From a virus (lineage: Duplodnaviria; Heunggongvirae; Uroviricota; Caudoviricetes), in IMG/VR virus record IMGVR_UViG_2703718815_000003: 64,000 nucleotides of DNA; one strand, written 5' to 3'. Under the pieces are notes generated by a model. The model ran no database searches, had not been told where the DNA came from, and saw only the letters and a list, made by a program, of their open reading frames with translations. Numbering within the stretch: the stretch's first letter is position 1; the number at the start of each line of letters is the position of its first letter. Position numbers and translations under genes: made by a program. Positions 16,870 to 42,838 of the stretch are shown in pieces.

Positions 16870-19185
16870 TCAGATTTTGCAGGCTCCGTCGCACTCATCT
16901 TCTGGCTCGACGGCTACAGCTTGCGTCAGTGGATTATGCGGTTCGTCGTCATCACGCTTTCCTGCCCCATCTCTGGTGTTGTGGTAGTAAAGCGTTTTAA
17001 CTCCCATCTTGTAGGCGAGAAGCAAATCTGACAGTAGCGTCATCATTGGGACTTTATCGCCTTCAAAGCGAGAAGGGTCATAGTTGGTATTGGCTGAAAT
17101 AGCCTGGTCAAAGAACTTCTGGATGATCGCCACCTTTGTCAGATAGCCGCGGTTGTCCGGCATATCCCACAGGTATTCATACTGTTCCTTCAGTTTTTCA
17201 AACTCAGGCACGACCATCTTAACGATGCCGTCCTTAGAAGATTTCACCGACACCAGGCCACGAGGCGGTTCGATGCCGTTGGTGGAATTAGTGATCTGGC
17301 TGGAAGTCTCGCATGGCATTTGTGCCGTCAGTGTGGAGTTGCGAAGGCCGTATTTTGCAATACGTTCACGCAGTTCTTCCCACGGCATCTTTAACTCAAA
17401 GTTGGTTTCGCCACTTTCGTCTAATGAAGAACGGTAATGGTCGATCGGCAACTGACCAATTGCGTACTTGGTCTGCTCAAACCAGTCACACTCACCTTTT
17501 GCTTCAGCAAGTCGGCAGCTGGCATCAAGAAGGTAATACTGGATAGCTTCGAACGTTTCATGCACCAGTTTATTGCCAGCGGTATCAGAATAACGAACGC
17601 CATTCTTTGCCAGGTAATAAGCAAAGTTGGTTACACCAATTCCCAAGCTACGACGAGCTTTGGCAGGCACTTCGGCTGCCTCCATCGGATAGTCTTGATA
17701 ATCCAGTAACGAATCCAGTGCAGCAACGGCATAGAACGCCACCTCTTTAAGAGACTCCAGTGAACGGATGGCTCCGAGGTTAAAAGCGGATAAAGTGCAT
17801 AGCGCGATCTCACCGTTCGGGTCGTCGGTAAATGCCAGTGGACGAGTGGGTAGAGTGATCTCCATGCACAGGTTTGACTGGCGAACAGGTGCAAGAGCAG
17901 GAATGAAAGCGCCATGCTCGTTAATATGATCTACGTTCGCAATATAAATTCGGCCCGTGGACGCTCGTTCCTGCATCAGAGATGAGAACAGCTCAATGGC
18001 AGGTACTGACTTCTTGCGAATTGAATCATCGGCTTCGTATTTATGGTACAGCTTTTCAAACAGCTCCTGGTCTGTGAAGAAGGCTTCGTACATATCAGGC
18101 ACATCATGCGGGCTGAACAGAGTGATGTTCTCGCTTCTGACGAGTCGACGGTACATTAGACGGTTACTCATGACGCCGTAATCAAGATGGCGAACGCGGT
18201 TTTCATCAATACCACGGTTATTTTTCACCACCAGCAGACTTTCAACTTCAAGATGCCAGATCGGGTAAAACGCTGTTGCTGCGCCACCACGAACACCACC
18301 TTGCGAACAAGATTTAACAGCCGTCTGGAAATGCTTCAGGAATGGAATAACTCCGGTATGGGTGGCTTCACCATTGCGGATCTCGCTGCCCAGCGCACGG
18401 ATACGGCCAAAACCAATACCAATTCCAGCACGACGTGAAACGTAGTCGATAATTGCGGCTGAAGCTGCACTAATCCCTTTCAGACTATCGCCAGACTCAA
18501 TCAGCACACAACTGGAGAACTGACGGGTTGGAGTACGGACGCCGGCCATGATTGGTGTGGGCAGAGACAGTTTGAACGTACTTGTAACGTCATAGAAACC
18601 TTTGACCATCTCCATACGTGTTTTGCCAGCGCAGTCGTCTTCCCAATTCTGGAACAGACACATGCCTACCAGCATATAGATATGTTGCGGCCCCTCATGA
18701 ATCTCACCAGTAACACGGTTTTGAACGAGGTATTTGCTTTGCAACTGCACCGTAGCTGCATAGCCAAAAAGATCGTCACGTTTCGGCTTAATGTAATTGC
18801 CGAGTTCTTCGATCTCTTCAAACGAATAATGTGTCAGCAAATCCTTGTCATAAACGCCCTTGTTAACGTTCTTGACAATGTGTTGGTAGAAGTTCGGATA
18901 GTCGTAACGACCGAAGGCATCTTTGCGGATTTTAAAAATGTTCAGGCGGGCAGCCACCTGTGAGTAATTTGGTGCTTCTGGTGAGATCAAATCAGCGGCA
19001 GATTTAACCAAAGCCTCATGCAACTGGCTGGTGGTAATCCCATCAAAAATGCTGGCCGCAGCTCCCATTGCTACAGCGGATGCGCTTACACCACGAATGC
19101 CTTCTACGCCATACATTACGACGCGGTTGTATTTTTCTTCGGATAACGGCTCTGTTTGGCCGTTACGTTTTACGATGCTTATCAT
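16870..19185 (-). CDS. nrdA: ribonucleotide reductase class Ia alpha subunit
   Basis: 771 aa; SNLCMEITLPT active-site loop, C-terminal DECDGACKI redox tail. Confidence 0.9.
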   Translation of the reverse strand: MISIVKRNGQTEPLSEEKYNRVVMYGVEGIRGVSASAVAMGAAASIFDGITTSQLHEALVKSAADLISPEAPNYSQVAARLNIFKIRKDAFGRYDYPNFYQHIVKNVNKGVYDKDLLTHYSFEEIEELGNYIKPKRDDLFGYAATVQLQSKYLVQNRVTGEIHEGPQHIYMLVGMCLFQNWEDDCAGKTRMEMVKGFYDVTSTFKLSLPTPIMAGVRTPTRQFSSCVLIESGDSLKGISAASAAIIDYVSRRAGIGIGFGRIRALGSEIRNGEATHTGVIPFLKHFQTAVKSCSQGGVRGGAATAFYPIWHLEVESLLVVKNNRGIDENRVRHLDYGVMSNRLMYRRLVRSENITLFSPHDVPDMYEAFFTDQELFEKLYHKYEADDSIRKKSVPAIELFSSLMQERASTGRIYIANVDHINEHGAFIPALAPVRQSNLCMEITLPTRPLAFTDDPNGEIALCTLSAFNLGAIRSLESLKEVAFYAVAALDSLLDYQDYPMEAAEVPAKARRSLGIGVTNFAYYLAKNGVRYSDTAGNKLVHETFEAIQYYLLDASCRLAEAKGECDWFEQTKYAIGQLPIDHYRSSLDESGETNFELKMPWEELRERIAKYGLRNSTLTAQMPCETSSQITNSTNGIEPPRGLVSVKSSKDGIVKMVVPEFEKLKEQYEYLWDMPDNRGYLTKVAIIQKFFDQAISANTNYDPSRFEGDKVPMMTLLSDLLLAYKMGVKTLYYHNTRDGAGKRDDDEPHNPLTQAVAVEPEDECDGACKI

Positions 19186-19191
19186 GTATCA

Positions 19192-19224
19192 CCAAATAAA
19201 GAGGGCCACTAAATATAGTGGCCC
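19192..19224 (-). terminator. intrinsic terminator
   Basis: gggccact-aaatat-agtggccc hairpin with T-rich tail on minus strand. Confidence 0.5.
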
Positions 19225-19258
19225 ATGTTAATAGATAAGCACTTACCTATCAATGAAA

Positions 19259-19828
19259 TCAAATGAGAGACTTAAGAACATCGCGCACCTGGCGGAACTG
19301 ATCTGTTTGCATACCGGTATGGATGGCAGCCACCGCATCAGCCAAATGTTCGTTTTTGTTCACGAGAACATCCTGTCCAGATTGCTTACGACGCAGCCAC
19401 GGTGCTTTAGGGTGTTTTTTCGTAGCCCACTGGATAATCTCTTCTTTCGATGTAGTAAGTTTATTGCCGACAAAATGCTTGATTTCGTTTGGAGTAACCT
19501 GGATCAATGGCTTATCCACACACGCAAGTACACCGATACAAATACCGTAAGACGTCTGCGAACGAGAGTTTTGGCTCCCAACCGGTAGCTCACAAAAAAC
19601 CATATTTGCCTTATCAATGATTGGCTTCGCAACACGCCATATTTCACTGGCGCGGCGCAGATCGTCACTGTTCACACGAACGGTCTTTTTGTTACTCCCC
19701 GCTTTAGTCTCAACAAGAGTAAGGCCGTGAATCTCAAGTTCGTCCGTCTCAAGGTCTAAAGTGCCCACAGCAAGCCCAAAGTTGCTCATTGAGGGATCAA
19801 CACCAACTACGCTGATTTTTTTACTCAT
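19259..19828 (-). CDS. RuvC-like Holliday junction resolvase (tentative)
   Basis: N-terminal VVGVDPSMSNFGLAV resembles the RuvC/YqgF first acidic motif. Confidence 0.45.
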   Translation of the reverse strand: MSKKISVVGVDPSMSNFGLAVGTLDLETDELEIHGLTLVETKAGSNKKTVRVNSDDLRRASEIWRVAKPIIDKANMVFCELPVGSQNSRSQTSYGICIGVLACVDKPLIQVTPNEIKHFVGNKLTTSKEEIIQWATKKHPKAPWLRRKQSGQDVLVNKNEHLADAVAAIHTGMQTDQFRQVRDVLKSLI

Positions 19829-19837
19829 ATAGTCTCC

Positions 19838-20581
19838 TTACCATGTTCCCCATATAGGGTTTTCCAATAATCTCGCCTCCAACGAATTGGCTACTATTGC
19901 CGTTTGCAACGTTGGTTGGGGATAGTTTGCAAAGTCTGAATACTCATTTTCCTGCGTGACACGTTTATCTGCGGCATGTTTAACACCACTTGCTATGAAA
20001 TGACGCATGATGCCCAATAGCCTCCGACTGTCTGCACTATCGTTTGCTAAAACATGAGGGAGCTGAAGTTCGATTTCTACCATTTCTCCATACTTACCAA
20101 CAAACTGTAGTTTGTCCGCACTGTACTTTTTATCCCTCCTTTGGATAAGGAAACCAGTAAAAGCATCACCTGGCGATGCCAAACTATCCACCCGCTTATT
20201 GGCAAGTCGAATAAGGTTCGTGAAAGCCATACAGTGATGCGCACCCATTCCCCCAAAGACCCCTTCGCTATTAATGTTAAGATCTTCAGTTTCATGGGAT
20301 GCAATAAACCCAGGCCCGACGTTGGGAAGATATCCCCCCTCAACAAAAGGATTAATCAGGATCGGCGCAATACATCCAGGTGGTAGTGATTTCAAACTTT
20401 GCATCAATGGCGTCTCGGATATTAGACCAAGCAACGCGGCGAATTGTACTCCGTCAATATTGTTGCTGCCCCACAGAATACGTGGAGCCGCACCATTGGA
20501 AGTATGCCCATTGATCAGTTTTATCGACTGCATCACTGCAAATACCTGCAAAAACTGCGAGCGGCTTAATTTAAACGACAT
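19838..20581 (-). CDS. hypothetical protein
   Basis: 247-aa ORF between resolvase-like gene and sbcC-like gene. Confidence 0.4.
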   Translation of the reverse strand: MSFKLSRSQFLQVFAVMQSIKLINGHTSNGAAPRILWGSNNIDGVQFAALLGLISETPLMQSLKSLPPGCIAPILINPFVEGGYLPNVGPGFIASHETEDLNINSEGVFGGMGAHHCMAFTNLIRLANKRVDSLASPGDAFTGFLIQRRDKKYSADKLQFVGKYGEMVEIELQLPHVLANDSADSRRLLGIMRHFIASGVKHAADKRVTQENEYSDFANYPQPTLQTAIVANSLEARLLENPIWGTW

Positions 20582-22487
20582 AGCTGCGCCCCTCTTTAAC
20601 TTCCAGCGTAATAGTTTCCCGGAACCATGACTTCATCTCTTTATGGGAGATAATCAGCACAGTACCTCGCTCGCGAGCTTTGGACTCCAGAATACCCATG
20701 AGGCGTTCAAGACCGGCTGTATCGAGTGCATCGTCAATTTCGTCGCCGATAAACAAATCGATGTTTTTACTCGCCCGGTTACTAACCAGATCCTGCAATG
20801 CCAAAGAACACGCAATGCGAACCTTCCGCTTCTCACCACCAGAGAGGGTCTGGAACGACTTACTTGAACCTTTCTTCTGCACACTAATGTTGAATTTGTC
20901 GCGATACTCACCTTTTTTAGTGACATCCATCGTCGACCACTCAGCAGTAATATTCCCGTCAGACAACGTATTGAGATACTCGGCAGTGCGTGTATTCAGG
21001 AAAGGCGTAACAGACGTCAAAATATGAGAACGCACCCCGGCAGGAGAGTAGACCTGACGAGCTTTTTCCAATAGCAACGTTTGTTCCTGAATAGCCTTCA
21101 ACTCATCTTTTAAGGACTTGAAGGTAGACTTACTGGATACCAAGTTATCTTCGTGTCTGGCGATAAGAGCAATAAACGGATTAATCTCTTTTGATATACG
21201 ATCGACCTCAGTACGAGCACGAGTCACAAGAGACTCAATAGCAACAACCTCCTTCTCACGATGACGCAAAGATGAGAGTTGTTTCGTAAGCTCTTCAATC
21301 CGGGCAATGATAGCCGTTACATCAGGTGTCGTTTTAACAAGGGCAGACTCAATGCTTAACGCTTTCTCAAGATTCGTTTTGTGTTTAGCCATTGCCTCTG
21401 CAAGTGTCTTCGCCTGACCAATTTCCTGACGTGCTTGTTCAATGAAATTCTCCTTCACCGTTGATAGATCTTCTTCGCAGTAGGCTTTGCCACAAGTAGG
21501 GCATGGTGATCCTACTTTAGTACCAACCTCTTCTGCTTTGGTCTTAAAATTGCGCGCGCGGCTCATTGCATCAGCCTGACTATTTTCTGTAGCTTTGATG
21601 CTTGCCCGAATATCAGTTATCGCACCACGAACTTTGAGCAACTTGGCGTCATGTTCTTCTTTTGAGGCTAACTTTTTGCGCTCACTTTCGATTGCCTTCT
21701 CGGTATCACGTATCTGTTCGGGAAGAGTGCGGATCTCAAGTTCAACTTCCGTTAACTCAACTTCGGCACTGGCCAGCCCAGCCAGGGCATCGTCATAACG
21801 TTTAGAACGCTCTTGCTCCCATGATTCAGAGGAGGCTTTCGCTGACTCAATTTCTGACTGTGTTGCCTCAATGGTCGAGATTGTCGACTCCAATTTGGTT
21901 TTAACCACATCCATACGTGCGGCAGCTGCATTAGCTCGCTCACGAGCAATAGCGTAGGCGCGTGTCAGTCTGTCAACGCCAGCGGCTTCTTCTACGATGG
22001 TTTTGAGGTTTTTGTCGGACATTCCAGGTAAATCTGGCATAGCTTCTTGGCTCGCATAGATGGAAGCCATGAAAACCTCTTTAGATGCACCGATCAGACG
22101 CTCGACGAACTCCTGCGTCAGCGCATCTTTGCCTTTCGTCATATCGCCATCTTCACCACGAACGATAAGACGATTTTTGAACTCTTTGTGTTTACGGTGA
22201 CGAATGATTGCGTATCTCTTGCCTTCATCCTCGATGGTTACTGCAACACGACAGTTCTTTTCATGGTCGGTAGACAACACATCGTCACCCTTCACACCAT
22301 GAGCTGTTTCGCCATAAAGACACCACATCAGGCTATTCATTAGAGTTGACTTTCCAGAGCCATTACTTGATGCGGAACTATCATCACTATTAACACCCTG
22401 AATAAGCACTAAACCACGCTGATCTAACTCGACCTCCGCGCTGGCGATAGCCATAAAATTCTCAACCTGGAGCTTTAAAAACTTCAT
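20571..22487 (-). CDS. SbcC/Rad50-like recombination ATPase
   Basis: N-terminal Walker A NGSGKST, long coiled-coil with central CPTCG zinc hook, C-terminal ABC signature region. Confidence 0.75.
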   Translation of the reverse strand: MKFLKLQVENFMAIASAEVELDQRGLVLIQGVNSDDSSASSNGSGKSTLMNSLMWCLYGETAHGVKGDDVLSTDHEKNCRVAVTIEDEGKRYAIIRHRKHKEFKNRLIVRGEDGDMTKGKDALTQEFVERLIGASKEVFMASIYASQEAMPDLPGMSDKNLKTIVEEAAGVDRLTRAYAIARERANAAAARMDVVKTKLESTISTIEATQSEIESAKASSESWEQERSKRYDDALAGLASAEVELTEVELEIRTLPEQIRDTEKAIESERKKLASKEEHDAKLLKVRGAITDIRASIKATENSQADAMSRARNFKTKAEEVGTKVGSPCPTCGKAYCEEDLSTVKENFIEQARQEIGQAKTLAEAMAKHKTNLEKALSIESALVKTTPDVTAIIARIEELTKQLSSLRHREKEVVAIESLVTRARTEVDRISKEINPFIALIARHEDNLVSSKSTFKSLKDELKAIQEQTLLLEKARQVYSPAGVRSHILTSVTPFLNTRTAEYLNTLSDGNITAEWSTMDVTKKGEYRDKFNISVQKKGSSKSFQTLSGGEKRKVRIACSLALQDLVSNRASKNIDLFIGDEIDDALDTAGLERLMGILESKARERGTVLIISHKEMKSWFRETITLEVKEGRSYVV

Positions 22488-24900: not shown

Positions 24901-25002
24901 GTATGCTGTCAGCGGTAATTGATAGTCTGTCAGCGGTTCACCGTATGCTGCCAACTGTTTTTGGTATTCTGTCAGCGGCAAATCAAGTATGCTGTCAGCG
25001 GT
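24901..25002 (+). repeat. iteron array upstream of repA (5 direct repeats of GTATGCTGTCAGCGGT)
   Basis: copies at 24901, 24925, 24943, 24966, 24987, spaced 18-24 bp. Confidence 0.8.
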
Positions 25003-25022
25003 TGAATGACAAAGGTGTCCAC

Positions 25023-26117
25023 ATGTCCACAAAAAATAAAAAAGGTAAAAATAACAAAGAAGTAGAAGATAATCTCGACAACTTTGAAGAAGGTTCCCTT
25101 GAATTGTACACAGGGGAACTTGTCCCTAATAGCAACAATACAGTCCAACCAATTGCGTTGATGCGGCTGGGATTGTTCGTGCCCACGCTCAAGGGGACAA
25201 AATACAGCAAGCGTAACAAGCCAAATGAGATCGATGCTTCAAAGGAGCTTGTTCAGCTCGAAGTAGCCCGTTCTGAAGGCTATTCCGATATCAAGATAAC
25301 CGGTCCTCGTCTCGACATGGATCATGATTTCAAAACGTGGGTGGGCGTTGTGCGTTCGCTGGCAGAATACGGCGAACCTAACGGTCGTGTCGAGTTAAGC
25401 ATCACGAAATTTGCGAAGTTTTGTGGCTATCCATCGTCACAGATCCGCAAAACACTCCGCGACCGGCTTACAAACAGTCTTTTGAAGATCATGCGTACAA
25501 CTCTGTCTTTCCAGAGAACGTATGAAGAAAAGAACGTCGACGGCTCTAACAAGATCTCGCTTCTGATGGTGCACCTCATCAATAGCGTGGACTACAACGA
25601 GCAGAAAGATACGGTGGTGTTCTATGCAGAACCGAAGCTGGCCGAACTATATCGCTTTGACCATAAGGTTCTTTTGCAGTTAAAGGTTATCAATAAGCTA
25701 CCACGCAAAGAAACAGCACAGGCTCTGTACACCTTCATCGAAAGTCTTCCAACCAAGCCTGCGCCGGTATCGCTTGCTCGATTGCGTGCGCGACTCAATT
25801 TGAGTAGCAGGAATGTCAGCTCGCAGAATCAGACTATACGCAACGGCTTAAAAGCTCTCCAAGATTTGGGTTATCTCGAATACAGCGAGATTAAGCGAGG
25901 GCGGTCGATCTATATCCAGATTCACAGCCGCAATCCAAAACTCAAAGTCGCACCGCCAAAACCTGAAGACATCGAACCCAAAAAACTAGATGAGAAAGCT
26001 GGGGAAATTGATGCCAAACAGAACATTATCAACAAGATAACCGAACTTTCGCAGAATTTGACGCCTGAAAATATCAAGATGATTGAGATCCTTTCCAATA
26101 GTCTCAAACTGCTTTGA
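25023..26117 (+). CDS. repA: iteron-binding replication initiator RepA-like protein
   Basis: only long plus-strand ORF here; bracketed by direct-repeat arrays; start placed at ATG 25023 after last upstream iteron (ORF track starts at 24903 inside the iterons). Confidence 0.65.
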   Translation: MSTKNKKGKNNKEVEDNLDNFEEGSLELYTGELVPNSNNTVQPIALMRLGLFVPTLKGTKYSKRNKPNEIDASKELVQLEVARSEGYSDIKITGPRLDMDHDFKTWVGVVRSLAEYGEPNGRVELSITKFAKFCGYPSSQIRKTLRDRLTNSLLKIMRTTLSFQRTYEEKNVDGSNKISLLMVHLINSVDYNEQKDTVVFYAEPKLAELYRFDHKVLLQLKVINKLPRKETAQALYTFIESLPTKPAPVSLARLRARLNLSSRNVSSQNQTIRNGLKALQDLGYLEYSEIKRGRSIYIQIHSRNPKLKVAPPKPEDIEPKKLDEKAGEIDAKQNIINKITELSQNLTPENIKMIEILSNSLKLL

Positions 26118-29435: not shown

Positions 29436-31775
29436 TTAATCTTCTAGTTCTTCTGTTGGTGATGTCTTCTCTCGTCGGTCATCTATCGTCTGTAAAGCCG
29501 CAATGATTTCAGCTAGTGGCTTCTCCCGATACATCTCGACGATCTGTGATTTGGTGTATTTCTTGTCACCAATTTCAACTCGCCCGCTGGCGTTCTTTGG
29601 CAGGTATCCTTCTTCCAGCATGTACTCGACGAGCGACTCGATAACGTCGAGGCCACGAGTAGGATCGAAGTAGAATTTCCAGGTGCATTTGCCATACGGT
29701 GGTGCAACTTTGTTTTTGATGCACTCTGCGCCTACGTCCTGACCGATCTTCTCTTTCCCATCCTTCATCACCGATGCACCGAGACGGATGCGCACAGAAG
29801 CGTAAAACTTCGGTGAATCGCCGCCTGGCGACGTAGTAGGGTCGCCAAACATTACACCGATTTTTGTGCGAACCTGATTCAAGAAGATGATGCAGGCGTT
29901 GTATTTGCGTGCCCACAAAGCCAGAGTAGGGAAGTTCGCACTCGTCGCACGAGCCAGTGCCGTATTGTCGTTCATGTTCAGCTGATCTTTGTCTTTGGCA
30001 GTGCCTTCAGCCATCTTTTCGAACTTCTCGGCTTTGGAGTTCGGAACCATAGACGCAAGTGAGTCAGCCACGATACAGATAGGTGCTGATTCAGGAATAA
30101 GCTCTTCATCACGTACCAATTTAAGAATTGTGCCGATCAACTCTACAGAGTCTTCGAAGGTATCAGGCTGCTTGTATACCCACTGACCGTCATCCTCATC
30201 TGCGTTCAGACCATTGGCGACAGCCAGGCCAACGTCAAAACTGTTTTCATGATCGAGGAATACCGCCAGACCATCTTGTTTTTGAGCGGAGATCATCGCT
30301 GCTGTTGCAAGGAATGTGTTGTGGCTGATAATCCCGTTAGACCAGAAAGAGTGTGTTTCCGGCATCGCTACGTCGAACGTTGGTGCTTCACCTTCCTCAA
30401 TAGCCACGACTTCGTCGTAGAACAAGTTAGAGCCAATTACCGCTGCCAGTTGTGCAAACAGATGCTCGTTAAAACGATTCTTTCTGCCAATGAAGGAGAC
30501 ATAGATTTCTCGCAGTTTGTCTATTCCGACACGATCGCCGCGGCCAATAACGTGGTCTACCAGAGCGTAGTCTTCACGGGTGGTCTTGGTGAGCGACTCG
30601 TAGAGTGATTTCACTAAGCCGCTGATGTGCGGAACATAGCCTGAGTAAGTGCGGTCAAAACCAATGTCCCGTTTGGTTGCCACTGATAAACGTGCCGGAG
30701 ATTCGAAACCAATCGTTGACAGAAAAAGGTCGTAATTAGAGCCACTGAATGACAGCCGGTAATATGTATTTTCATAACCCGCGACGTGTTTTTCAGAGAT
30801 AGTTGACGTAATCCCCAGATTCAGGAGCATGAGGCGAATTTGCTGTAGCAGCAGCCCACTCGCGCTCACAACCTCAATGCAGCGACCATCATTGACGTGG
30901 CATTCCAGCTCAAAGTAGCCGCGAAGGAATGCAATTTGAGCCTCGCTATTGGCGCGACGCACACTCAACGGAACCTGCTTGCCAGCAGCTTTCTCATACT
31001 CCAGACCATATTCTTTAAAAAGCAGCGAACGCACCTCTTTGCTAAACAGCACATGGTCTTCCGAGCCGTTATGTTTTCTCGTAACTGGCATCTTGTCTGA
31101 TACCAGCGAAATGAGGCGGTAGTACTCATCCTTGATGAAAGGATCTGTGTTAGAAAAATTCACTGAATTTTCAGAGGCCACGTATCCGTCAGCAATTAAA
31201 TAGCCCATCAGTTTTGCGATATTGGCATCCAGGTGCTGATCGCCGAATTGATGTGTGCCAACCATTGAAGGAATCGTGTCGCCTACACTGATTTTTTCAG
31301 CATGTCGCCAGACGACATTACCTAAGTCGTCAACCACACGGATTGGGTGACGGAACGTAGCCTCGATATAACCGCCTGATGCCAGCTTAATACGCTTGAA
31401 TTTGCGACGGTTGTTCCATGTCAGGTGTGAGGTCTTCTCTATCACGCCATTTTCATTGATGAGTCCAACGTTATGCTCTACATCGCGAGTAGTGCATGTC
31501 GCTTTGTACCCTTCAATCTCAAACAACTCTTTCACTGTTACCATTCCACGCTCCGTCAGCAGCATGGTGTCTGCGGTAACACATTTCCCTGCACTTGGAG
31601 GACCGAATACTTCGACGATACGACCACATGGGAAGCCGCCATCGTAACGACCGGAAATAGCTTTGTTTAACGGTGGAAAGCCTGTATCAATCCAATGAGT
31701 TACTTTCTGAATTTCGTCGTTGCTACCGATTTTCTTTTTCAGAGCAAGTGCCAGTGCGGATTTTCCTTTTGCCAT
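29436..31775 (-). CDS. RecA-like recombinase interrupted by an intein
   Basis: extein: Walker A GPPSAGK|T split by insert, plus NQVRTKIGVMFGDPTTSPGGDSPKFYASVR RecA core; extein about 357 aa. Confidence 0.8.
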   Translation of the reverse strand: MAKGKSALALALKKKIGSNDEIQKVTHWIDTGFPPLNKAISGRYDGGFPCGRIVEVFGPPSAGKCVTADTMLLTERGMVTVKELFEIEGYKATCTTRDVEHNVGLINENGVIEKTSHLTWNNRRKFKRIKLASGGYIEATFRHPIRVVDDLGNVVWRHAEKISVGDTIPSMVGTHQFGDQHLDANIAKLMGYLIADGYVASENSVNFSNTDPFIKDEYYRLISLVSDKMPVTRKHNGSEDHVLFSKEVRSLLFKEYGLEYEKAAGKQVPLSVRRANSEAQIAFLRGYFELECHVNDGRCIEVVSASGLLLQQIRLMLLNLGITSTISEKHVAGYENTYYRLSFSGSNYDLFLSTIGFESPARLSVATKRDIGFDRTYSGYVPHISGLVKSLYESLTKTTREDYALVDHVIGRGDRVGIDKLREIYVSFIGRKNRFNEHLFAQLAAVIGSNLFYDEVVAIEEGEAPTFDVAMPETHSFWSNGIISHNTFLATAAMISAQKQDGLAVFLDHENSFDVGLAVANGLNADEDDGQWVYKQPDTFEDSVELIGTILKLVRDEELIPESAPICIVADSLASMVPNSKAEKFEKMAEGTAKDKDQLNMNDNTALARATSANFPTLALWARKYNACIIFLNQVRTKIGVMFGDPTTSPGGDSPKFYASVRIRLGASVMKDGKEKIGQDVGAECIKNKVAPPYGKCTWKFYFDPTRGLDVIESLVEYMLEEGYLPKNASGRVEIGDKKYTKSQIVEMYREKPLAEIIAALQTIDDRREKTSPTEELED
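30318..31583 (-). mobile_element. intein with LAGLIDADG homing-endonuclease domain inside the recombinase P-loop
   Basis: begins with Cys after GPPSAGK, block B TFRHP, LAGLIDADG-like LMGYLIADGY and LRGYFELE, ends ...IISHN followed by Thr (+1 nucleophile). Confidence 0.7.
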
Positions 31776-31777
31776 GA

Positions 31778-32050
31778 TCAGGCTCCTTTTGTTTCGTTGA
31801 TTCGTTTTAAAGCGGCGGATTCATCGAATACAATCGCATCGTGGTTAAGGAGTCTGGATACACGAGCGAGGATTTTTACGACCTGCTCGCTGACTAATCC
31901 AAACTCGCGATCTGTCGCTTTCATTCCGGCAGCGCCTAGAATTGACGGCAGTGCGATGACAGCGTACTCACCGTGATAAAAGACAATCTCTTTTGCCAGT
32001 TGGGTGGGGGTGGTTGTAGCGCCATTAATAATCGATTTAAGCATTAGCAA
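31778..32050 (-). CDS. hypothetical protein
   Basis: 90-aa ORF. Confidence 0.3.
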   Translation of the reverse strand: MLMLKSIINGATTTPTQLAKEIVFYHGEYAVIALPSILGAAGMKATDREFGLVSEQVVKILARVSRLLNHDAIVFDESAALKRINETKGA

Positions 32051-32988
32051 TACCTTTCGAATGGAAGAACAAACACTTCAAGGTCTTCAAGGAACGAACG
32101 GAAATTCAGCTCGTAGCACAGTTGCTCGAATGCTTTCACGTCACGATTGCCTTTGATTGTTTCGATTTCGGTAGGCGGAAACTTCGTCTCAATCAGGTTC
32201 ATTAGCGTGATGTTTCTCTTGAACGCTTCGAGCATTCGACAGCCTGTTTTCTCGTTGAAGGCATTCTTCGCTAGTTTGTTGAAGGCGGTCTTATGACGTC
32301 CTTTGTCAACCACGATTGAGCCGTCGTTGATGCCGCGTACCATCGTTGCGACACTTCCCCATTCATGCAGCAGCTCTTTCGCACCGCCAGCACCAATGCC
32401 ACCAACACCGCTAATGTTGTCCGATTTATCGCCTTGTAATGCTTTTGCTTCCAAAAATGCGCGAGGAGTAGCGAATCCTGTCAGCTCCGCAAATTGCTCA
32501 AAATTAACCTGCTTGTTTTTGGCGTCTTCACGCAGGCTTACCCAGCTTACGTTTTCACGAACTAACTGAAGCCAGTCGCTATCGCCTGTTAACAGATAGA
32601 TGTGTTCAACGGTTGGCTGCGGTGCCATGCGGGATACCAGCAGCCCGGCCAGATCATCCGCTTCTGCATCTTTTGCAATGAGTTGGGTAACTCCAAGCGC
32701 GGTCATCATTTTGAGGATGTATGGCTTCTGGATAGCAAAGCCTTCCTTCATCTTTTTCATATCAGGATCGTCGTCGCGATTTGCTTTGTAGTCCGGGTAA
32801 AAGTCGCGACGCTTGTCACTAAATCCATCCCAAAGAATCATAGGCCGGGCATGGAGGATGGAGGCATAACGACGGACGTTCTTAACAAAGCCGAAAGCAG
32901 CCTGTACTTCCATTTCGCCGTTGTGCAATTTGTCAGATTGTTGGTGGTAATAGCCCAGGCTATTGCCATCTACGAAGAGATAATTCAC
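32044..32988 (-). CDS. 5'-3' exonuclease / flap endonuclease
   Basis: LFVDGNSLGYY, AKDAEADD, LLTGDSDWLQL, QGDKSDNISGVGGIG motifs; start moved to GTG 32988 with GGAAGGA RBS because the longer ORF would include the upstream terminator hairpin. Confidence 0.8.
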   Translation of the reverse strand: MNYLFVDGNSLGYYHQQSDKLHNGEMEVQAAFGFVKNVRRYASILHARPMILWDGFSDKRRDFYPDYKANRDDDPDMKKMKEGFAIQKPYILKMMTALGVTQLIAKDAEADDLAGLLVSRMAPQPTVEHIYLLTGDSDWLQLVRENVSWVSLREDAKNKQVNFEQFAELTGFATPRAFLEAKALQGDKSDNISGVGGIGAGGAKELLHEWGSVATMVRGINDGSIVVDKGRHKTAFNKLAKNAFNEKTGCRMLEAFKRNITLMNLIETKFPPTEIETIKGNRDVKAFEQLCYELNFRSFLEDLEVFVLPFERYC

Positions 32989-33004
32989 CGGTACATTCCT
33001 TCCA

Positions 33005-33035
33005 AAAAGTAAGGCGTCCGTAGACGCCTTACTGG
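33005..33035 (-). terminator. intrinsic terminator
   Basis: taaggcgtc-cgta-gacgcctta hairpin with T-run on minus strand. Confidence 0.55.
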
Positions 33036-33048
33036 TCACGTAATGGGA

Positions 33049-34077
33049 TTACAGAGAGTCCAGCTCTCTCAGTAGGTCATCCAGACCTTCATCTTCCGTC
33101 GCAGATGCGGTTGCTACAGATGTCGCTGCGACTGCTTCAGACTCTTTGACTGATACGGCAACGGCAGCGGAACTTGCCTCTGGTTTAAATTCAGTTTCAA
33201 CGGCACGGAGGATTTCTTCATCAACCAGACTGGTTGGTTCAGAAGCCGGTGTGTGCGCGGTTGCTACAGCCGTCGCTCCTTCTGTATGACCAGTGACAGA
33301 GCCAAATCCAGGTAGTGCCGCAGCCGATGTTTTCGCGGTTGAGGAAATTGCTGGTGCAGATGCTGCGGCAGTTGGTGCAGCGATGCCAATCAGACGACCC
33401 ATAGTGCGAACTGTCGACAGAAGACGAGTTTCATCAGCCTGATTTGCGTATGCGATCAGATCATGCTGGGTGTTCCAGAATTTATCTTCGATATCGCCTT
33501 TGTAGACTTTACGCTTAGGCGAGACGTCATATTTGGTATCGCGACCAGAGCCAGTACGTTTAATCAGGAATGCGTAGCCTTCCTCTTTGCTCAGTGGATT
33601 GCCGATATCATCAGCGATGTCTTCGGTGATTGCTTTGCAGATATCATCGAATACAGTAGACGGCAGCTCGATTAATTGGCATTTCTCAGCATCTGCGAAA
33701 TCCTCACGAGCTGAAAGAATGCCGTTGACCAGGTAGCGAGGAGTGGCACGCATTTGACCGATGCGTTCTTCCATTGCTTTGTTACCCTTGTGACGAGCGC
33801 GACCTTCCATCACCATTTCGCATAGCTGACAAGCGCGACCGTGAGTATGTTGCTCACAAATATAAGCGTTGGTTGCTTCTTTACCGTCCTCGTTCTGATA
33901 CTTAACGTAGTGCATACCGAAAGTCTGGAAGAACTTACCGTTTGGGTCGTCCTTATTCGGGAAGATACGGATATAGTTGACGCCATCTTTTAAGCGAGTC
34001 AGATCAACGTTGTTACCACGTTTGGCGGCAATGTCTTCACGAGTTTTGTTAAGCAAATCAAGTAATGTCTTAGACAT
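33049..34077 (-). CDS. single-stranded DNA-binding protein (tentative)
   Basis: Cys/His cluster (CEQHTHGRACQLC), Ala/Ser/Thr-rich linker and acidic C-terminal tail DEGLDDLLRELDSL. Confidence 0.5.
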   Translation of the reverse strand: MSKTLLDLLNKTREDIAAKRGNNVDLTRLKDGVNYIRIFPNKDDPNGKFFQTFGMHYVKYQNEDGKEATNAYICEQHTHGRACQLCEMVMEGRARHKGNKAMEERIGQMRATPRYLVNGILSAREDFADAEKCQLIELPSTVFDDICKAITEDIADDIGNPLSKEEGYAFLIKRTGSGRDTKYDVSPKRKVYKGDIEDKFWNTQHDLIAYANQADETRLLSTVRTMGRLIGIAAPTAAASAPAISSTAKTSAAALPGFGSVTGHTEGATAVATAHTPASEPTSLVDEEILRAVETEFKPEASSAAVAVSVKESEAVAATSVATASATEDEGLDDLLRELDSL

Positions 34078-34194
34078 GTGTTTCTCCTTGTTGTGATTTG
34101 GCCGATGGCGCTATGCGCGTTGGGCTTTCGTTCATTCGTGGCTCTTTCGAGCTGTTCAATGATAGATCAGTACTTACTTATTATCTATCAAAAA

Positions 34195-34626
34195 TCAACG
34201 GGGAGTAATAAAGCGTTCGGAGCCTAATCGCTCCAATTCAACAATGGCCATCTTCGACGCCTGAACGATCATGTCTCGGCGATGCGAAAAGGCGGCGACA
34301 GCATGTTTGTATATGTCTGCGATGTGCCGTGCTTCATCCAACTTCTGCCGTTTAGACAGATACTGTGGGTTTGTTTTAACCTTAGCGTCCAGTACAGATT
34401 CGTTGAACTTAATGCCGTTCATACTCAAGTTCTTACGCTCTGTGTCGTATAGCTTTGCTTCAACAGCTTCAAGGTTAAGTTTTGCCTCTGCGACACTTCT
34501 TTCTGCATGAGCGAGTTTTGAGCCATATTCCATCAACAGGCGGGGTTGTCTACGCCAGACTTCTTCCAGATTGTCTCGGTCAAACTCGAGATCAGACATT
34601 ATTTTCTCGTAAATATCGGTGATCAT
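34195..34626 (-). CDS. hypothetical protein
   Basis: 143-aa ORF. Confidence 0.4.
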   Translation of the reverse strand: MITDIYEKIMSDLEFDRDNLEEVWRRQPRLLMEYGSKLAHAERSVAEAKLNLEAVEAKLYDTERKNLSMNGIKFNESVLDAKVKTNPQYLSKRQKLDEARHIADIYKHAVAAFSHRRDMIVQASKMAIVELERLGSERFITPR

Positions 34627-38450: not shown

Positions 38451-39686
38451 TTAACCAAATATTTTTTGAACAACTTCACGAGCCGCTTGCGCAGAAGCTG
38501 AAGGGAGTTTGTTAATGAAAGAACGCTCAATACCTGTCACAAAGTCGCCTCGCATCATTCCAATCTTGGCCGACAACAAAAGCTCACGAGGCCCAATTGG
38601 CTGGCTGATAAGGTGTTCTTCATATCCATCGCGAACGATACCGGCAAACTTAACCATCTTTTCAGCGTATTCATCCACGATGCCGGCATTTATCAACATG
38701 TTGATCTCTGCCTCTTTGCTCATGTATTTCACATTCGAAACGATGCCAAAACGTGAAAAGTTCGCGGCGTTCTGGATGTTTGTACCCTGGTACAAGCCGG
38801 TTTCATCACCAGAACCGTTTGTGTTGCCAGTGCCAATGAAAGCAAACCGTTCATGCGGAGTAATGCGACGCCATTCTGGAGTCGCCTCTTTGATGACCAA
38901 CGCTTCACCTTCCAGCACTGGCTGATACACGCCAAGAATCTGTGGAAACGCAAAGTCGTATTCATCCGCGAGGTAAACCCAGCCATGCTTCATTGCGAGC
39001 GCAAGCAAGCCAGGCTCGAAATACGTAGAGCCATCACGCGCCAGAATTTGTCCCGTAACATGAGCCTCTTCCATTGATGCTGTATGTTGGGCACGGATTA
39101 ACGGACGATTGAGCAAAGCACATAGTTGTGTAGGCAATGAAGATTTGCCTGTTCCTGCATGACCCCACAAATAGCCAGGTATGCCAAGTTCAAGCATCAT
39201 GAAAATGTCTTTGATCAGTTCGAAGTCGCCATATACGTATCCCTTCTTCACTTCTGGAACGAACTCTGGAAACGGCGTATTGACGTTGACGCTAACCATG
39301 AGCGGCGTCCCACGTTTTGTTCCGAGTTCTTTCACCGTTACATTTAGCAGTTCGTGAGCTGCGACCAGATCTGTCTTGTACTCAACTGTGCCTGTGTAGC
39401 CTGGGCTACTGGTCACGCCAGATGATTTGGCCATTTCGCTTTTTTGCTCGGCACGTTTAGCTTGAATTGCATCAAGTGCCTTTTTCGATAGCGTTGGCTC
39501 ATCTGGAAACTGTGTTGTGTACATTTTCAGTACGGTGTCAGGATCGGCATCTTTTACTGACTCAGGAATGCCCTCGCAATTACCATTGGCTACATGGGAC
39601 TTAAAATAGTGAAATGATTTTCCGCACCACTTGCAAACAAGGTAATCAGAAGGATTTTTTTCATTTTGCAGTGCAGTAGTAGTCAT
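38451..39686 (-). CDS. AAA+ ATPase, CobS/MoxR-like
   Basis: Walker A GHAGTGKSS, Walker B VYLADEYDF. Confidence 0.7.
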   Translation of the reverse strand: MTTTALQNEKNPSDYLVCKWCGKSFHYFKSHVANGNCEGIPESVKDADPDTVLKMYTTQFPDEPTLSKKALDAIQAKRAEQKSEMAKSSGVTSSPGYTGTVEYKTDLVAAHELLNVTVKELGTKRGTPLMVSVNVNTPFPEFVPEVKKGYVYGDFELIKDIFMMLELGIPGYLWGHAGTGKSSLPTQLCALLNRPLIRAQHTASMEEAHVTGQILARDGSTYFEPGLLALAMKHGWVYLADEYDFAFPQILGVYQPVLEGEALVIKEATPEWRRITPHERFAFIGTGNTNGSGDETGLYQGTNIQNAANFSRFGIVSNVKYMSKEAEINMLINAGIVDEYAEKMVKFAGIVRDGYEEHLISQPIGPRELLLSAKIGMMRGDFVTGIERSFINKLPSASAQAAREVVQKIFG

Positions 39687-39781
39687 GCGTTTTTCCTTTG
39701 TTTTCTAATGAGCGTTCAACTTCTTATATAAATATATCATTATCTATCGTAAGTGGTTACTTATCGTTAAGGCTGTTTTGT

Positions 39782-41890
39782 TCACTTTAAAATGATACGA
39801 GATAGTTCAGTAACTACAGATGAACCAAGACTATCAACGCTCGTTACCAGGGCATGATTTGAGTAAAATCTCTCCGGTGCATCAGTCATGATGCCAATTG
39901 CCATCAAATCAATGTCAGTCTGCGTTTCAATTTGCTTCGCAACTGAACGCAAATGAGCGTCAAAACCTCTCCCAACAGCCCACGGCGCGCCATCACTCAG
40001 AACAAGCATGATCTTCCTGTCCTCCAAGCGACCGGAAAATAACGATGCAAGGCTGGCTATGCTTTCACCATCCACGTTATTAAGAAGTGGGAATGTGTAG
40101 CCTACGCACCCCATACGTGAGCGAACTTCGCGAGAATTTGCTTTTTCATTCCAATTTTTGATGATAGGTAGCATTAAAGATTCAAAGCGAGAGAACTCAT
40201 ATTTGATAGCCTTAAGTTCTCCTGCTGCCATATGACTGCCAAATGTAGTGAAGCCGGTGATAATGTTGGGAACATTTATTCGATCAAGTGCATCGGCGAT
40301 GGTATATGCACTTGCAAGAGCTAGTTTTATCGTTTCGCCACTCATTGAACCCGATAAATCAATCACTTGTTGAACACAGGCGTTAACGGCTTTAGATTCT
40401 TCTTTTTTACGAAACACGCGATCATCATTCATTGTTAATCTGTAGATACTTGAACCATGAATGCGCCCCCGACGCTGGCCAGGTATAAACTGAACTCTGT
40501 TTCTGCTTGCTATTGCACGTTCCAGGTCTTTTGCCAGCGTCGACGAAACACCTGACGAAAGGTGCTTTTCAATATATTTGTCGAAGAGTTGGTTGCCTTC
40601 AGGAACGATGCGATAACGGCTGATTGGATATCCACCTAAATCAATATCGGAGAATGTTTTAATAAGCCGTTTGATATGGGCTTCTGCCTGATCAATCGAG
40701 CCGATGAAGTCGTATGAGCGATTGTATGGCCTGTATTCGCTTTTCGAGCTTTCTGTTAACTCGCTTTTAATCGTTTCGGATAGCGCATCTTCTGTCATGC
40801 CTCCGACTTCATCTTCCATGCTATCCAACTCCTCTAAAGCCTCTTCCAGACTCATTTTTGACGGAGTTGGAATGTCTGAAGAGCCGTCTTCTGTCGTTTT
40901 TCTTTTTTCGTGGTCAGCGGTTAATGATTCTGACGCCGCGTTATCAGAAGCATCAGAATCTGATACCGCTTTATCATTTTCTGTATCATCGAATATTGTT
41001 TCTGATGATTCAGGATTATCTGAATCATCACTGTCGTTATTATCATTTTTGTGCTTACTATGTGACTCTGATTTAATAGATTTGTGATTATCTAACGATG
41101 AGGGTGTCTCATGATCTTCGTTGTCTTCATTGTTTTCTCCAGAGGCATCCGTCTGGTCAGCGTCTGAAGGATCGGAAGTTTTTCCCGGAGCTGACTCCTT
41201 ACCTTTGCTTTCACTTTCAGTGTCTTTGAGGATCTTAGCTATGGTCGCAGCCACCTTTACACAATCCTCGGTGCAAGACATGTTACGCACGGCCACATCG
41301 ATACCATGTTCTTTTAATAATGAAATTGGTTTCTCAATGACAGGCCAATATTCATCCATGAAATCTACGAACGGTGCTTGGCCATCCCAGGCTCTTACAA
41401 CCGGACAGAGAAAGAAGTTTAGAACAAGCGCGCGCTGATCTTTGCCACAATAAGCAATAGCCTCTGAAGCCTTTGGTTTAAAGACTTTTTCGATTATAAG
41501 GCGCTGAGTTGCCATCAGATTACGTCCTGTTCCGTTAAAGACCTGACCCATTTTTCGCTCGATGAACACGTCTTCTAAGGCATTCCATAGCGACCAGGAA
41601 GGAACGCGTCCTTTTTCTCTCATTTTGTTGGACACACGAATATCGGTAAACAAAATGTGAGCAACCTCATGATCGAGAAATCCGCGCACAGCATTCATCA
41701 ATGCCGGTGTTGCGTTATCCGGGATTGATGGGATGTTTACGAGAATTGGCTCTCCATCATCGTTATAGCGTACATAAGCGTCGTCCCCTCGTTCTGCAAC
41801 AGGGATGTTTTTACCTGAAAGGAGAGCGACTACTCGTTTTACACTGTCACGGAAGTCCTGAACCTCTTTGATGGAACGTTTTTTAGACAT
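39782..41890 (-). CDS. von Willebrand factor A domain protein, CobT-like
   Basis: central acidic low-complexity region; C-terminal vWA with MIDAS motif DLSGSMSGE. Confidence 0.65.
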   Translation of the reverse strand: MSKKRSIKEVQDFRDSVKRVVALLSGKNIPVAERGDDAYVRYNDDGEPILVNIPSIPDNATPALMNAVRGFLDHEVAHILFTDIRVSNKMREKGRVPSWSLWNALEDVFIERKMGQVFNGTGRNLMATQRLIIEKVFKPKASEAIAYCGKDQRALVLNFFLCPVVRAWDGQAPFVDFMDEYWPVIEKPISLLKEHGIDVAVRNMSCTEDCVKVAATIAKILKDTESESKGKESAPGKTSDPSDADQTDASGENNEDNEDHETPSSLDNHKSIKSESHSKHKNDNNDSDDSDNPESSETIFDDTENDKAVSDSDASDNAASESLTADHEKRKTTEDGSSDIPTPSKMSLEEALEELDSMEDEVGGMTEDALSETIKSELTESSKSEYRPYNRSYDFIGSIDQAEAHIKRLIKTFSDIDLGGYPISRYRIVPEGNQLFDKYIEKHLSSGVSSTLAKDLERAIASRNRVQFIPGQRRGRIHGSSIYRLTMNDDRVFRKKEESKAVNACVQQVIDLSGSMSGETIKLALASAYTIADALDRINVPNIITGFTTFGSHMAAGELKAIKYEFSRFESLMLPIIKNWNEKANSREVRSRMGCVGYTFPLLNNVDGESIASLASLFSGRLEDRKIMLVLSDGAPWAVGRGFDAHLRSVAKQIETQTDIDLMAIGIMTDAPERFYSNHALVTSVDSLGSSVVTELSRIILK

Positions 41891-42451: not shown

Positions 42452-42838
42452 ATGTCTGATAACAAGATTGAATTTATAGAAAGTCGCTACGCTGCTTTTA
42501 TCGCAGGGTTGATTGAATCCTCACCTATGAGCCAGGCCCAGATAGCCAAAACAATTGGGTATAAAAACGCCAACAACCTTTCTTTAATTAAAAGCGGCAA
42601 AATTCCTTTGCCTATCGATAAGGTTCGTCCGCTGGCGCTGGCACTGGGCATTGAGCCAAGTCGTCTTATGATGATGGTGCTGGAAGAACGCCAACCCGAA
42701 CTCGCAGCATTTTTATACAAAGAAGGCACTGCTCCTCTTAACGAGGACGAAAAACAGGTTCTTGCTGCATATAACGAGCGATTCGGTAAAGAGAAAGGCG
42801 CATCACAAAAGGTTGTTGAGGCCATAAAGTCTCTATGA
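42452..42838 (+). CDS. XRE-family helix-turn-helix transcriptional regulator
   Basis: HTH SQAQIAKTIGYKNANNLSLIKSGK; plus-strand gene convergent with recombinase. Confidence 0.65.
   Translation: MSDNKIEFIESRYAAFIAGLIESSPMSQAQIAKTIGYKNANNLSLIKSGKIPLPIDKVRPLALALGIEPSRLMMMVLEERQPELAAFLYKEGTAPLNEDEKQVLAAYNERFGKEKGASQKVVEAIKSL

Follow-up and report, generated by a model that had tools for sequence, protein, structure and literature searches.

A probable class 1 P-loop intein with a nested LAGLIDADG homing endonuclease in the UvsX/RecA-like recombinase of an SSU5-like phage-plasmid

In the 64,000-nucleotide stretch of DNA analyzed here (the window), an SSU5-like phage-plasmid encodes a UvsX/RecA-like recombinase that very probably carries a class 1 intein in its P-loop, with a LAGLIDADG homing endonuclease nested inside it, and this intein would be RecA c2 (65-486). 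The intein is already known, being listed in the tabulated inteins of a 2015 survey (PMC4513877). What we add is that its host is a phage-plasmid UvsX-like gene and never chromosomal recA.

Results

The precursor gene (29436..31775, stop codon included) lies on the minus strand, as do all features described below. It encodes a 779-aa intein-containing RecA/UvsX-like recombinase, assigned from the open reading frame list, from Pfam and from 98.5% nucleotide identity to a gene of Escherichia phage Cyrano (= pLF82) that is annotated 'RecA'. A Shine-Dalgarno sequence read from the DNA, AAGGAG (31783..31788), stands 7 nt before the ATG at 31775. The initial annotation of this DNA described the ORF as RecA-like at both ends, with joined exteins of 357 aa, and both statements hold. 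Pfam models for RecA, Intein_splicing and LAGLIDADG_3 all match the ORF, and the RecA match (PF00154), 125.5 bits split over two stretches in the precursor, becomes a single stretch of 145.7 bits when the insert is removed. The N-extein (aa 1-64; 31584..31775) ends in the Walker A residues GPPSAGK (31584..31604). The C-extein (aa 487-779; 29439..30317) begins with Thr+1 (Thr487; 30315..30317), a nucleophile that doubles as the Walker A Thr, and the RecA match resumes at precursor residue 484.

The description of the host as a RecA-like recombinase stands as far as the family is concerned (PF00154), but not as cellular RecA. The protein matches PHROG 97, 'UvsX-like recombinase' (E 1e-91), and reaches 132.5 bits with the bacterial RecA equivalog TIGR02012, below the cut-off of 325.3. 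Judged by these profiles, the host protein is a UvsX-like recombinase of the RecA family, from an SSU5-like enterobacterial phage-plasmid, and not cellular RecA. Upstream of the gene and outside the intein is a recombination module (32044..34626) with a FEN-like 5'-3' exonuclease (32044..33039; PHROG 107; 'Exonuclease' in Cyrano), a gp32-like SSB (33049..34077; PHROG 1192; 'SSB T4 gp32-like' in Cyrano) and a UvsY-like mediator (34195..34626; 'UvsY recombination mediator' in Cyrano). As for the names given to the recombinase in databases, some PGAP records call the gene 'intein-containing recombinase RecA', most RefSeq records call the whole protein 'LAGLIDADG family homing endonuclease', and PHROGs gives 'unknown function'. 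The RefSeq and PHROGs labels obscure what is a core gene for recombination in SSU5-like phage-plasmids.

The intein comprises 422 aa (precursor residues 65-486; 30318..31583), a HINT domain with the endonuclease nested in it, and is inserted between the Lys and Thr of Walker A, GPPSAGK/T. Its first codon, Cys65, is at 31581..31583 and its last, Asn486, at 30318..30320. The initial annotation had placed these boundaries correctly to the base, and its list of motifs (a Cys start, TxxH, two LAGLIDADG motifs, and HN followed by Thr) was recovered in full. Block A, CVTADTMLLTERG (intein residues 1-13; 31545..31583), contains the Cys1 nucleophile, and block B, GGYIEATFRHPIRV (residues 70-83; 31335..31376), has the TxxH sequence T76-F-R-H79. 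LAGLIDADG motif 1, AKLMGYLIADGYV (residues 123-135; 31179..31217), holds candidate catalytic residue D132 (LIAD132G), and motif 2, IAFLRGYFELECHV (residues 217-230; 30894..30935), holds candidate E227 (FELE227C). Block F, PTFDVAMPETHSFWSNG (residues 401-417; 30333..30383), includes D404 and H411. Block G, IISHN (residues 418-422; 30318..30332), ends in penultimate His421 and terminal Asn422, followed by Thr. Cys1, the TxxH motif, the His-Asn of blocks F/G with Thr+1, the profile matches and the in-frame insertion are those of a class 1 intein, and two motifs, each with an acidic residue (D132 and E227), are those of a double-motif LAGLIDADG endonuclease. None of the class 1 catalytic residues is missing or altered in any of the 18 alleles that were compared. 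In an alignment with inteins of Herelleviridae phages, C1, L9, T10 and G13 are invariant, as are T76, H79, E227, D404, H411, H421 and N422.

Intein models score above their cut-offs throughout, with 46.6 bits for Intein_splicing (PF14890; cut-off 35.8), 65.8 for LAGLIDADG_3 (PF14528; cut-off 22.5), which covers intein residues 215-292, 35.3 for the N-terminal region model TIGR01445 (cut-off 24.5), which matches residues 1-83, and 17.8 for the C-terminal region model TIGR01443 (cut-off 15.6), scored on the precursor. Every one of the 18 PDB sequences matched by the intein profile is an intein, including the V-ATPase intein, Mxe GyrA, PI-PkoII, PI-PfuI, Pho RadA, DnaB and CDC21. In alignments with the V-ATPase intein (7qsu) and PI-PkoII (2cw7), motif 1 falls on the first motif of each, and E227 on the Asp of their second motif. 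For the Mxe GyrA, Ssp DnaB and CDC21 inteins, the profile match takes in the C-terminal region. The HINT fold is a prediction from these sequence profiles; an AlphaFold2 model of the intein from single-sequence input had a mean pLDDT of 38. The set of intein motifs is far beyond chance.

Natural alleles that lack the intein provide an exact counterpart of the predicted spliced product. In phages CMS-2020a and SSU5 the recombinase reads GPPSAGKTFLATAAM, which is exactly the product predicted here, and the 357/358-aa proteins run GPPSAGK-TFLATAAM with zero gaps and zero extra residues. Aligning the extein halves with insert-less homologues had been proposed as a check on the initial annotation, and the gapless result bears it out. 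Relative to these two alleles the intein is a clean in-frame insertion of 1266 nt, and in CMS-2020a, SSU5 and 61 IMG/VR alleles exactly 1266 nt are absent and GPPSAGKT is restored. Within 45 nt to either side of the junction, CMS-2020a and the window differ in their DNA by a single synonymous base. The intein-less target is GGGAAA/ACGTTCCTT in the CMS-2020a type and GGTAAA/ACCTTTTTG in the SSU5 type, and nine intein-less IMG/VR alleles carry a GGTAAA/ACCTTCCTG type. The composite target reconstituted from the flanks of the intein is GGGAAA/ACATTCCTT. No second uninterrupted copy of the target occurs within the window, with up to 3 mismatches allowed.

Among public plasmids from E. coli, Klebsiella and Enterobacter the intein is frequent. 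It is present in 248 of the 562 PLSDB plasmids that have the recombinase gene and in 114 of 250 complete E. coli genomes that have it, and 425 contigs encode exactly the 779-aa protein of the window. Complete E. coli genomes contain 252 copies, every one of them plasmid-borne. Invasion of chromosomal recA is ruled out by the absence of any chromosomal match in 5,426 E. coli genomes.

A population signature of homing was found among these alleles. Between the window and Klebsiella and Enterobacter alleles, the intein keeps 97% nucleotide identity (dS 0.09), whereas the exteins have 79-85% identity and dS >1. Over 153 pairs of intein-bearing alleles, the identity of the inteins never drops below 0.965, even where the exteins are as little as 84-86% identical (lowest extein identity 0.84), and every intein-bearing extein has an intein-less neighbor at 96-99% identity. 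The junction GGGAAA/ACATTCCT occurs in 18/18 intein-bearing alleles and 0/61 intein-less alleles. The uninterrupted composite site has no match in IMG/VR or in JGI metagenomes; a control pattern one base off (ACG for ACA, the Thr codon) is found in 22 IMG/VR contigs. Differences between an intein-bearing allele and its nearest intein-less relative cluster from -7 to +8 nt around the insertion point, and in one such pair 6 of 11 differences fall inside 16 of 1032 nt (binomial p 6e-9). These junction-linked synonymous differences may be co-conversion tracts, or may mark surviving alleles that resist cleavage. The intein is under purifying selection (dN/dS 0.15; 0.18 for the endonuclease part), as are the exteins at 0.01-0.03. 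Taken together, an element younger than its flanks, its sporadic spread and the junction-linked tract point to homing. Alleles with and without the intein occur side by side in about equal numbers, and thus homing is not sweeping to fixation.

Discussion

We propose a model where the split P-loop would keep the 779-aa precursor from binding ATP, and where splicing would rebuild the site. We infer the splicing steps from the established intein pathway, and the enzymatic steps of spread are inferred too. Cys1, aided by Thr76 and His79 of block B, would carry out an N-S acyl shift at the Lys64-Cys65 bond, and the resulting thioester would be attacked by the Thr+1 hydroxyl to give a branched ester. 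Cys and Ser are stronger nucleophiles than Thr, and extein context is reported to be able to block the splicing of a RadA intein in the P-loop (PMC4513877), so splicing here may be inefficient. Cyclization of Asn422, aided by His421 and by Asp404 and His411 of block F, would then free the intein, and an O-N shift would leave an ordinary Lys-Thr peptide bond. The products would be a 357-aa recombinase with a whole GPPSAGKT and a free 422-aa intein. We found no report of experimental splicing or DNA cleavage by this intein in the searchable literature.

For its spread, the free intein or the precursor would act as a site-specific endonuclease and cut intein-less alleles of the gene in a cell where two related phage-plasmids meet. 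With the intein-bearing copy as repair template, the intein would then be copied into the break, together with about 7-8 nt of flank per side. The comparison of alleles presented here is, at the sequence level, the signature of homing-type spread.

Several other readings deserve consideration. The intein could be competent for splicing and its endonuclease dead, passed on only by vertical inheritance or by passive recombination between phage-plasmids. Both kinds of allele do coexist at similar frequency, even in near-identical extein backgrounds, the commonest intein-less E. coli allele is one synonymous base from the occupied site and still empty, and decayed copies occur, one broken by an IS1-like element and one within a truncated gene. 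However, D132 and E227 are both kept, the dN/dS of 0.18 in the endonuclease part is not that of a neutral sequence, and intein dS is more than 10-fold below extein dS across genera. The intein-linked tract, moreover, spans only ~16 nt, and such a tract is more in line with gene conversion initiated by a break at that point than with general recombination, whose end points would be random. We therefore regard a dead endonuclease as improbable.

It is far less plausible still that the insert does not splice at all, as a degenerate or bacterial-intein-like domain that is retained or only cleaves, leaving the 779-aa protein as the final or an inactive form. The spliced product is a predicted one, and PHROGs (phrog_9666, 'unknown function') and PGAP mostly treat the 779-aa protein as one entity. 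Against this, the residues of the class 1 pathway are complete and unvarying in 18/18 alleles, and an unspliced protein with a split Walker A should not bind ATP. Purifying selection on the exteins is also very strong (dN/dS 0.01-0.03), which, despite the split P-loop, indicates production of a functional recombinase. Group I introns and free-standing genes, too, encode LAGLIDADG endonucleases. Instead of an intein acting on the protein, the insert might be such an element at the DNA or RNA level, or an artefact of assembly. This is scarcely credible. The frame is open across both junctions through 779 codons and HINT splicing blocks flank the endonuclease on both sides, which rules out a group I intron or a free-standing endonuclease gene; an artefact is ruled out by recurrence of the structure in 248 independent plasmid records and 425 contigs. 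The reading that we favor is thus a splicing intein that homes.

Whether this homing intein is more than a passenger is a separate matter, and we think it unlikely that it is. By analogy with the P-loop RadA intein of Pyrococcus horikoshii, its splicing may be conditional, so that the UvsX-like recombinase would be active only in certain states, such as lytic induction or DNA damage. Alternatively, the intein may serve as a weapon between phage-plasmids, its endonuclease cutting the recombinase gene of an entering intein-less competitor among related, incompatible phage-plasmids. If that were true, the ~50:50 coexistence of alleles and the synonymous variants at the junction would be the mark of an arms race still under way between target and nuclease.

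As a discovery the intein carries little weight, since it is published, has well over a thousand proteins in databases, and combines the best-known intein site with the best-known architecture. Our literature searches found no description of it in an SSU5, phage-plasmid or UvsX context (UvsX judged by titles and abstracts), and the Cyrano/LF82 paper makes no mention of an intein. Its practical worth lies in being a natural intein polymorphism on a phage-plasmid that replicates in E. coli (Cyrano/pLF82 and relatives), with allele pairs with and without the intein as little as one flanking base apart. The UvsX/UvsY/gp32/exonuclease module adjoining the intein is one reason why it would make a convenient model. 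In a standard host, it offers a system for studying homing, the length of co-conversion tracts, target-site resistance and possibly conditional splicing.

Among known systems, the nearest is c2 itself. Table 1 of Topilina, Novikova, Stanger, Banavali and Belfort (2015, NAR 43:6631; PMC4513877) lists, for E. coli, Enterobacter and Salmonella, a RecA intein at insertion point c2 (65-486). The coordinates 65-486, the P-loop insertion point and the host taxa are all the same as for the window intein, and by these the window intein is the element published there as c2. Where that survey deals with c2, it treats the host as bacterial RecA and mentions neither plasmid nor phage, whereas the window host is an SSU5-like phage-plasmid.

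The Pyrococcus horikoshii RadA intein (c1; 4e2t, 4e2u, 2lqm) occupies the homologous site of a RecA-superfamily recombinase, between Lys and Thr of the P-loop, and its +1 nucleophile is likewise Thr. It differs in being a 172-aa mini-intein without an endonuclease and unrelated in sequence to the window intein, whose profile detects it weakly (E 1.7e-8), and conditional splicing has been shown for Pho RadA only. The passages of the 2015 survey on these two sites hold their invasions to be independent (PMC4513877). The RecA inteins of Mycobacterium tuberculosis and M. leprae (PI-MtuI) likewise contain LAGLIDADG motifs and reside in a RecA-family host, but lie at points a and b (residues 252 and 206) of chromosomal recA, according to the survey's entries for them (PMC4513877). 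Membership in that family is ruled out by the different site and by a score far below cut-off for the model of mycobacterial intein-containing RecA (NF007072; 100.8 bits against 1024). Mycobacteriophage TerL1-a inteins, inserted between an invariant Lys and a nucleophilic Thr, have been described as occupying the 'classic' P-loop site of a phage ATPase (Kelley et al. 2016, PMC5050341). Their host is a terminase and they belong to another intein lineage than the window intein.

The closest relatives outside the SSU5 group are P-loop inteins of Herelleviridae, with 31-34% identity over the full 422 aa. They reside in RecA of Bacillus phage fHSPT3 and in UvsW-like helicases of Staphylococcus phages Twort and Twillingate, of Listeria phages and of Enterococcus phage iF6. 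Architecture and type of site are as here, with GKPGGGK/C...HN/S in the phage RecA and TNGGK/C...HN/T in the helicases, but the host proteins are others and the phages infect Gram-positive bacteria. At about 33% sequence identity, these inteins are members of the same family as the window intein and not the same allele.

Results

The initial annotation had placed an intein with a LAGLIDADG endonuclease in the Walker A loop of a RecA-like recombinase, and both this finding and its interpretation are borne out by the splicing blocks, the family models and exact intein-less alleles. The precursor is a 779-aa ORF on the minus strand (29436..31775), with a Shine-Dalgarno AAGGAG 7 nt from its ATG. 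Precursor residues 58-64 are GPPSAGK, followed by Cys65, and His-Asn at 485-486 precedes Thr487; the ORF reproduces exactly the proposed 422-aa insert (30318..31583, minus strand) and the 357 aa of the exteins joined without it. The insert contains a complete set of standard intein blocks: block A (CVTADTMLLTERG, intein residues 1-13, with Cys1), block B (GGYIEATFRHPIRV, 70-83, with T76 and H79), the two LAGLIDADG motifs (AKLMGYLIADGYV, 123-135, with D132; IAFLRGYFELECHV, 217-230, with E227), block F (PTFDVAMPETHSFWSNG, 401-417, with D404 and H411) and block G (IISHN, 418-422, with H421 and N422). In single-sequence alignments, D132 and E227 align with the catalytic acidic residues of both motifs in 7qsu and 2cw7.

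Against Pfam, the full protein matched RecA in two stretches (125.5 bits), LAGLIDADG_3 (63.4 bits) and Intein_splicing (44.4 bits). Removing the insert in silico merged RecA into one stretch (145.7 bits), and the insert by itself scored 65.8 bits for LAGLIDADG_3 and 46.6 bits for Intein_splicing, all of these matches exceeding gathering scores. The NCBIfam models of the N-terminal and C-terminal intein splicing regions both passed cut-off, and partial NCBIfam matches included, among many, the intein portions of archaeal/bacterial RFC, IF-2, GyrA, RNR, DnaB and V-ATPase A subunit. A single-sequence search of solved structures found the V-ATPase intein (7qsu, 7qss), PI-PkoII (2cw7), a DnaB intein and PI-PfuI, while a four-sequence profile returned 18 distinct PDB sequences, every one an intein, including Mxe GyrA, Pho RadA, Ssp DnaB and CDC21.

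In the extein alignment suggested by the initial annotation, the insert-lacking homologues of phages CMS-2020a (357 aa) and SSU5 (358 aa) both read VFGPPSAGKTFLATAAM. Without its 1266-nt insert, the window gene is collinear with CMS-2020a DNA; over the 45 nt on either side of the junction the two differ only at the last position of the Thr codon (ACA versus ACG), and no target-site duplication accompanies the insert in this comparison. Given such clean collinearity, the insert coincides exactly with the segment that the predicted protein splicing would take out. The anatomy and the exact match to empty alleles are thus directly supported here.

In Escherichia phage Cyrano (plasmid pLF82), which has been described as the SSU5-like phage-plasmid from E. 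coli LF82 (PMC9928086), the 'RecA' gene shares 98.5% identity with the window gene; the figure is 97.9% for phage PhiR41_1 and 90% for Klebsiella phage vB_KpnS_p4727, and the exteins of the window gene match Salmonella phage SSU5. Its neighbours on one side encode a FEN-like exonuclease, a gp32-like SSB, a UvsY-like mediator and a Pol III alpha subunit, and those on the other encode a RepA-type replication initiator and additional plasmid functions. The spliced protein matches PHROG 97, 'UvsX-like recombinase' (E 1e-91), the host protein scores 132.5 bits with the bacterial RecA equivalog model, well under its 325.3 cut-off, and the gene occurs in 250 of 5,426 complete E. coli genomes, each time on a plasmid and never on a chromosome. 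The host gene is therefore a phage-plasmid recombinase, distinct from cellular recA.

Other genes of the window deserve mention. Between the exonuclease and recombinase genes sits a conserved ORF of 90 aa, function unknown (31778..32050, minus strand; phrog_2207, E 2e-54). It overlaps the stop codon of the exonuclease, and 2 nt separate its end from the ATG of the recombinase; its counterpart is labelled hypothetical in SSU5 and in Klebsiella and Enterobacter plasmids. A Rep3-type initiator (24903..26117) and a tyrosine integrase (42833..43936) are present, as are CobS-like (AAA_5), CobT-like (CobT/VWA), class I ribonucleotide reductase large subunit and SbcC/Rad50-like ATPase genes (38451..41890 and 16870..22487, minus strand). 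Ribonucleotide reductases are frequent intein hosts; the large subunit in the window (771 aa) contains none. A 567-aa ORF (54387..56090, minus strand) lies in a 2-kb GC trough (0.33 versus about 0.46 for the window); it falls in phrog_4740, of unknown function, and its match to the KAP-family P-loop NTPases is only marginal (22.1 bits). It has the look of an accessory gene gained recently, perhaps one for defence.

Of the 562 PLSDB plasmids having the gene, 248 contain the intein (Escherichia 123, Klebsiella 71, Enterobacter 41, Citrobacter 6, and small numbers from other genera), as do 114 of the 250 gene-carrying complete E. coli genomes. Yersinia is absent from the PLSDB intein matches, although 63 Yersinia plasmids have the gene. 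The exact window protein is found on 425 contigs of a public protein collection, where clustering at 90% identity groups it into a set of 1,496 members. Database names are inconsistent: RefSeq/PGAP mostly calls the whole protein 'LAGLIDADG family homing endonuclease', some records use 'recombinase RecA', only a few Enterobacter records use 'intein-containing recombinase RecA', and PHROGs files the precursor as phrog_9666, 'unknown function'.

Two copies are damaged. In E. coli plasmid p2 (CP059946.1, 1932..2702), the endonuclease domain is broken by an insertion of 771 bp that has terminal inverted repeats GGTAATGACTCCAACTTATTGAT / GGTGATGTTGCCAACTTACTGAT and is accompanied by an 8-bp target duplication, and the interrupted gene has no annotation. 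We take these repeats to resemble IS1. In a 62-kb Escherichia albertii plasmid (CP043243.1, 1306..3076), the C-extein of a decaying copy gives way to unrelated sequence after 313 nt; the intein of this copy is the most divergent seen (94% nucleotide identity). Because it is only 62 kb, this plasmid is probably a degraded phage-plasmid.

Between the window allele and those of Klebsiella pneumoniae and Enterobacter hormaechei, the intein is 97% identical in nucleotides (dS 0.09; dN/dS 0.15, or 0.18 in the endonuclease part), whereas the exteins are 79-85% identical, with dS above 1 and dN/dS of 0.01. Strong purifying selection on exteins and intein, and horizontal spread of the intein relative to its flanks, are directly supported here. 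An IMG/VR scan with the extein as query gave 80 loci; the usable alleles among them numbered 17 with the intein and 61 without it. Across 153 pairs of intein-bearing alleles, extein identity ranged from 0.84 to 1.00 and intein identity was always at least 0.965; for every one of these exteins, a neighbour 96-99% identical exists among the intein-less alleles.

The junction GGGAAA/ACATTCCT is found in 18 of 18 intein-bearing alleles and, as a 14-mer, in none of the 61 intein-less ones. Neither IMG/VR nor the JGI metagenome collection contained a match to a degenerate 32-nt pattern representing the composite site in uninterrupted form; the control pattern, with ACG for ACA, matched 22 IMG/VR contigs. 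Differences between an intein-bearing allele and its closest intein-less relative cluster from -7 to +8 nt about the insertion point, and in one such pair (L087 and L035) 6 of 11 differences fall within 16 of 1032 positions (binomial p 6e-9). Such junction-linked sequence tracts are observed directly, and combined with the other population data they are the footprint to be expected when an endonuclease initiates gene conversion and the co-conversion tracts are very short. The junction differences may alternatively be read as selection for cleavage-resistant synonymous variants among still-empty alleles. The population data as a whole are evidence that the intein is, or recently was, mobile.

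Discussion

We propose a model that follows the established class 1 pathway, where an N-S acyl shift at Cys1 would be followed by trans-esterification onto Thr+1, cyclisation of Asn422 and an O-N shift restoring GPPSAGKT. As in the LAGLIDADG family, the empty site would be cut to leave 4-nt 3' overhangs, and, in a cell shared by two related phage-plasmids, the occupied allele would serve as the template for repair. That splicing is conditional, or that the intein takes part in competition among phage-plasmids, is quite unlikely.

The intein itself is already known, being published, widespread and of a textbook kind. Our literature search found no paper testing its splicing or cleavage and none assigning it to a phage-plasmid. 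What remains of value is this phage-plasmid context, a clean natural polymorphism of intein presence and absence on a replicon tractable in E. coli, and the fact that database names of the recombinase are misleading.

The survey of RadA/RecA inteins by Topilina et al. 2015 (PMC4513877) lists 'c2 (65-486)' in Table 1 for eight E. coli strains, Enterobacter cloacae BWH 29, Enterobacter sp. MGH 26 and Salmonella enterica 557928, and its coordinates, taxa and site agree exactly with the window intein. The survey places c2 at precisely the point of the archaeal RadA intein (c1), to which it is unrelated in sequence, and thus points to independent invasion. [quoted passage not shown] 2016, PMC5050341). 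The closest inteins beyond the SSU5 group belong to Herelleviridae phages of Gram-positive hosts, with 31-34% identity over the full length. Bacillus phage fHSPT3 carries its intein in RecA at the same P-loop point (GKPGGGK/C...HN/S), while Twort-like Staphylococcus phages, Listeria phages and Enterococcus phage iF6 carry theirs in the P-loop of a UvsW-like helicase (TNGGK/C...HN/T). Together, the window intein and those of Herelleviridae form a phage-borne intein family targeting GK/[ST] P-loops.
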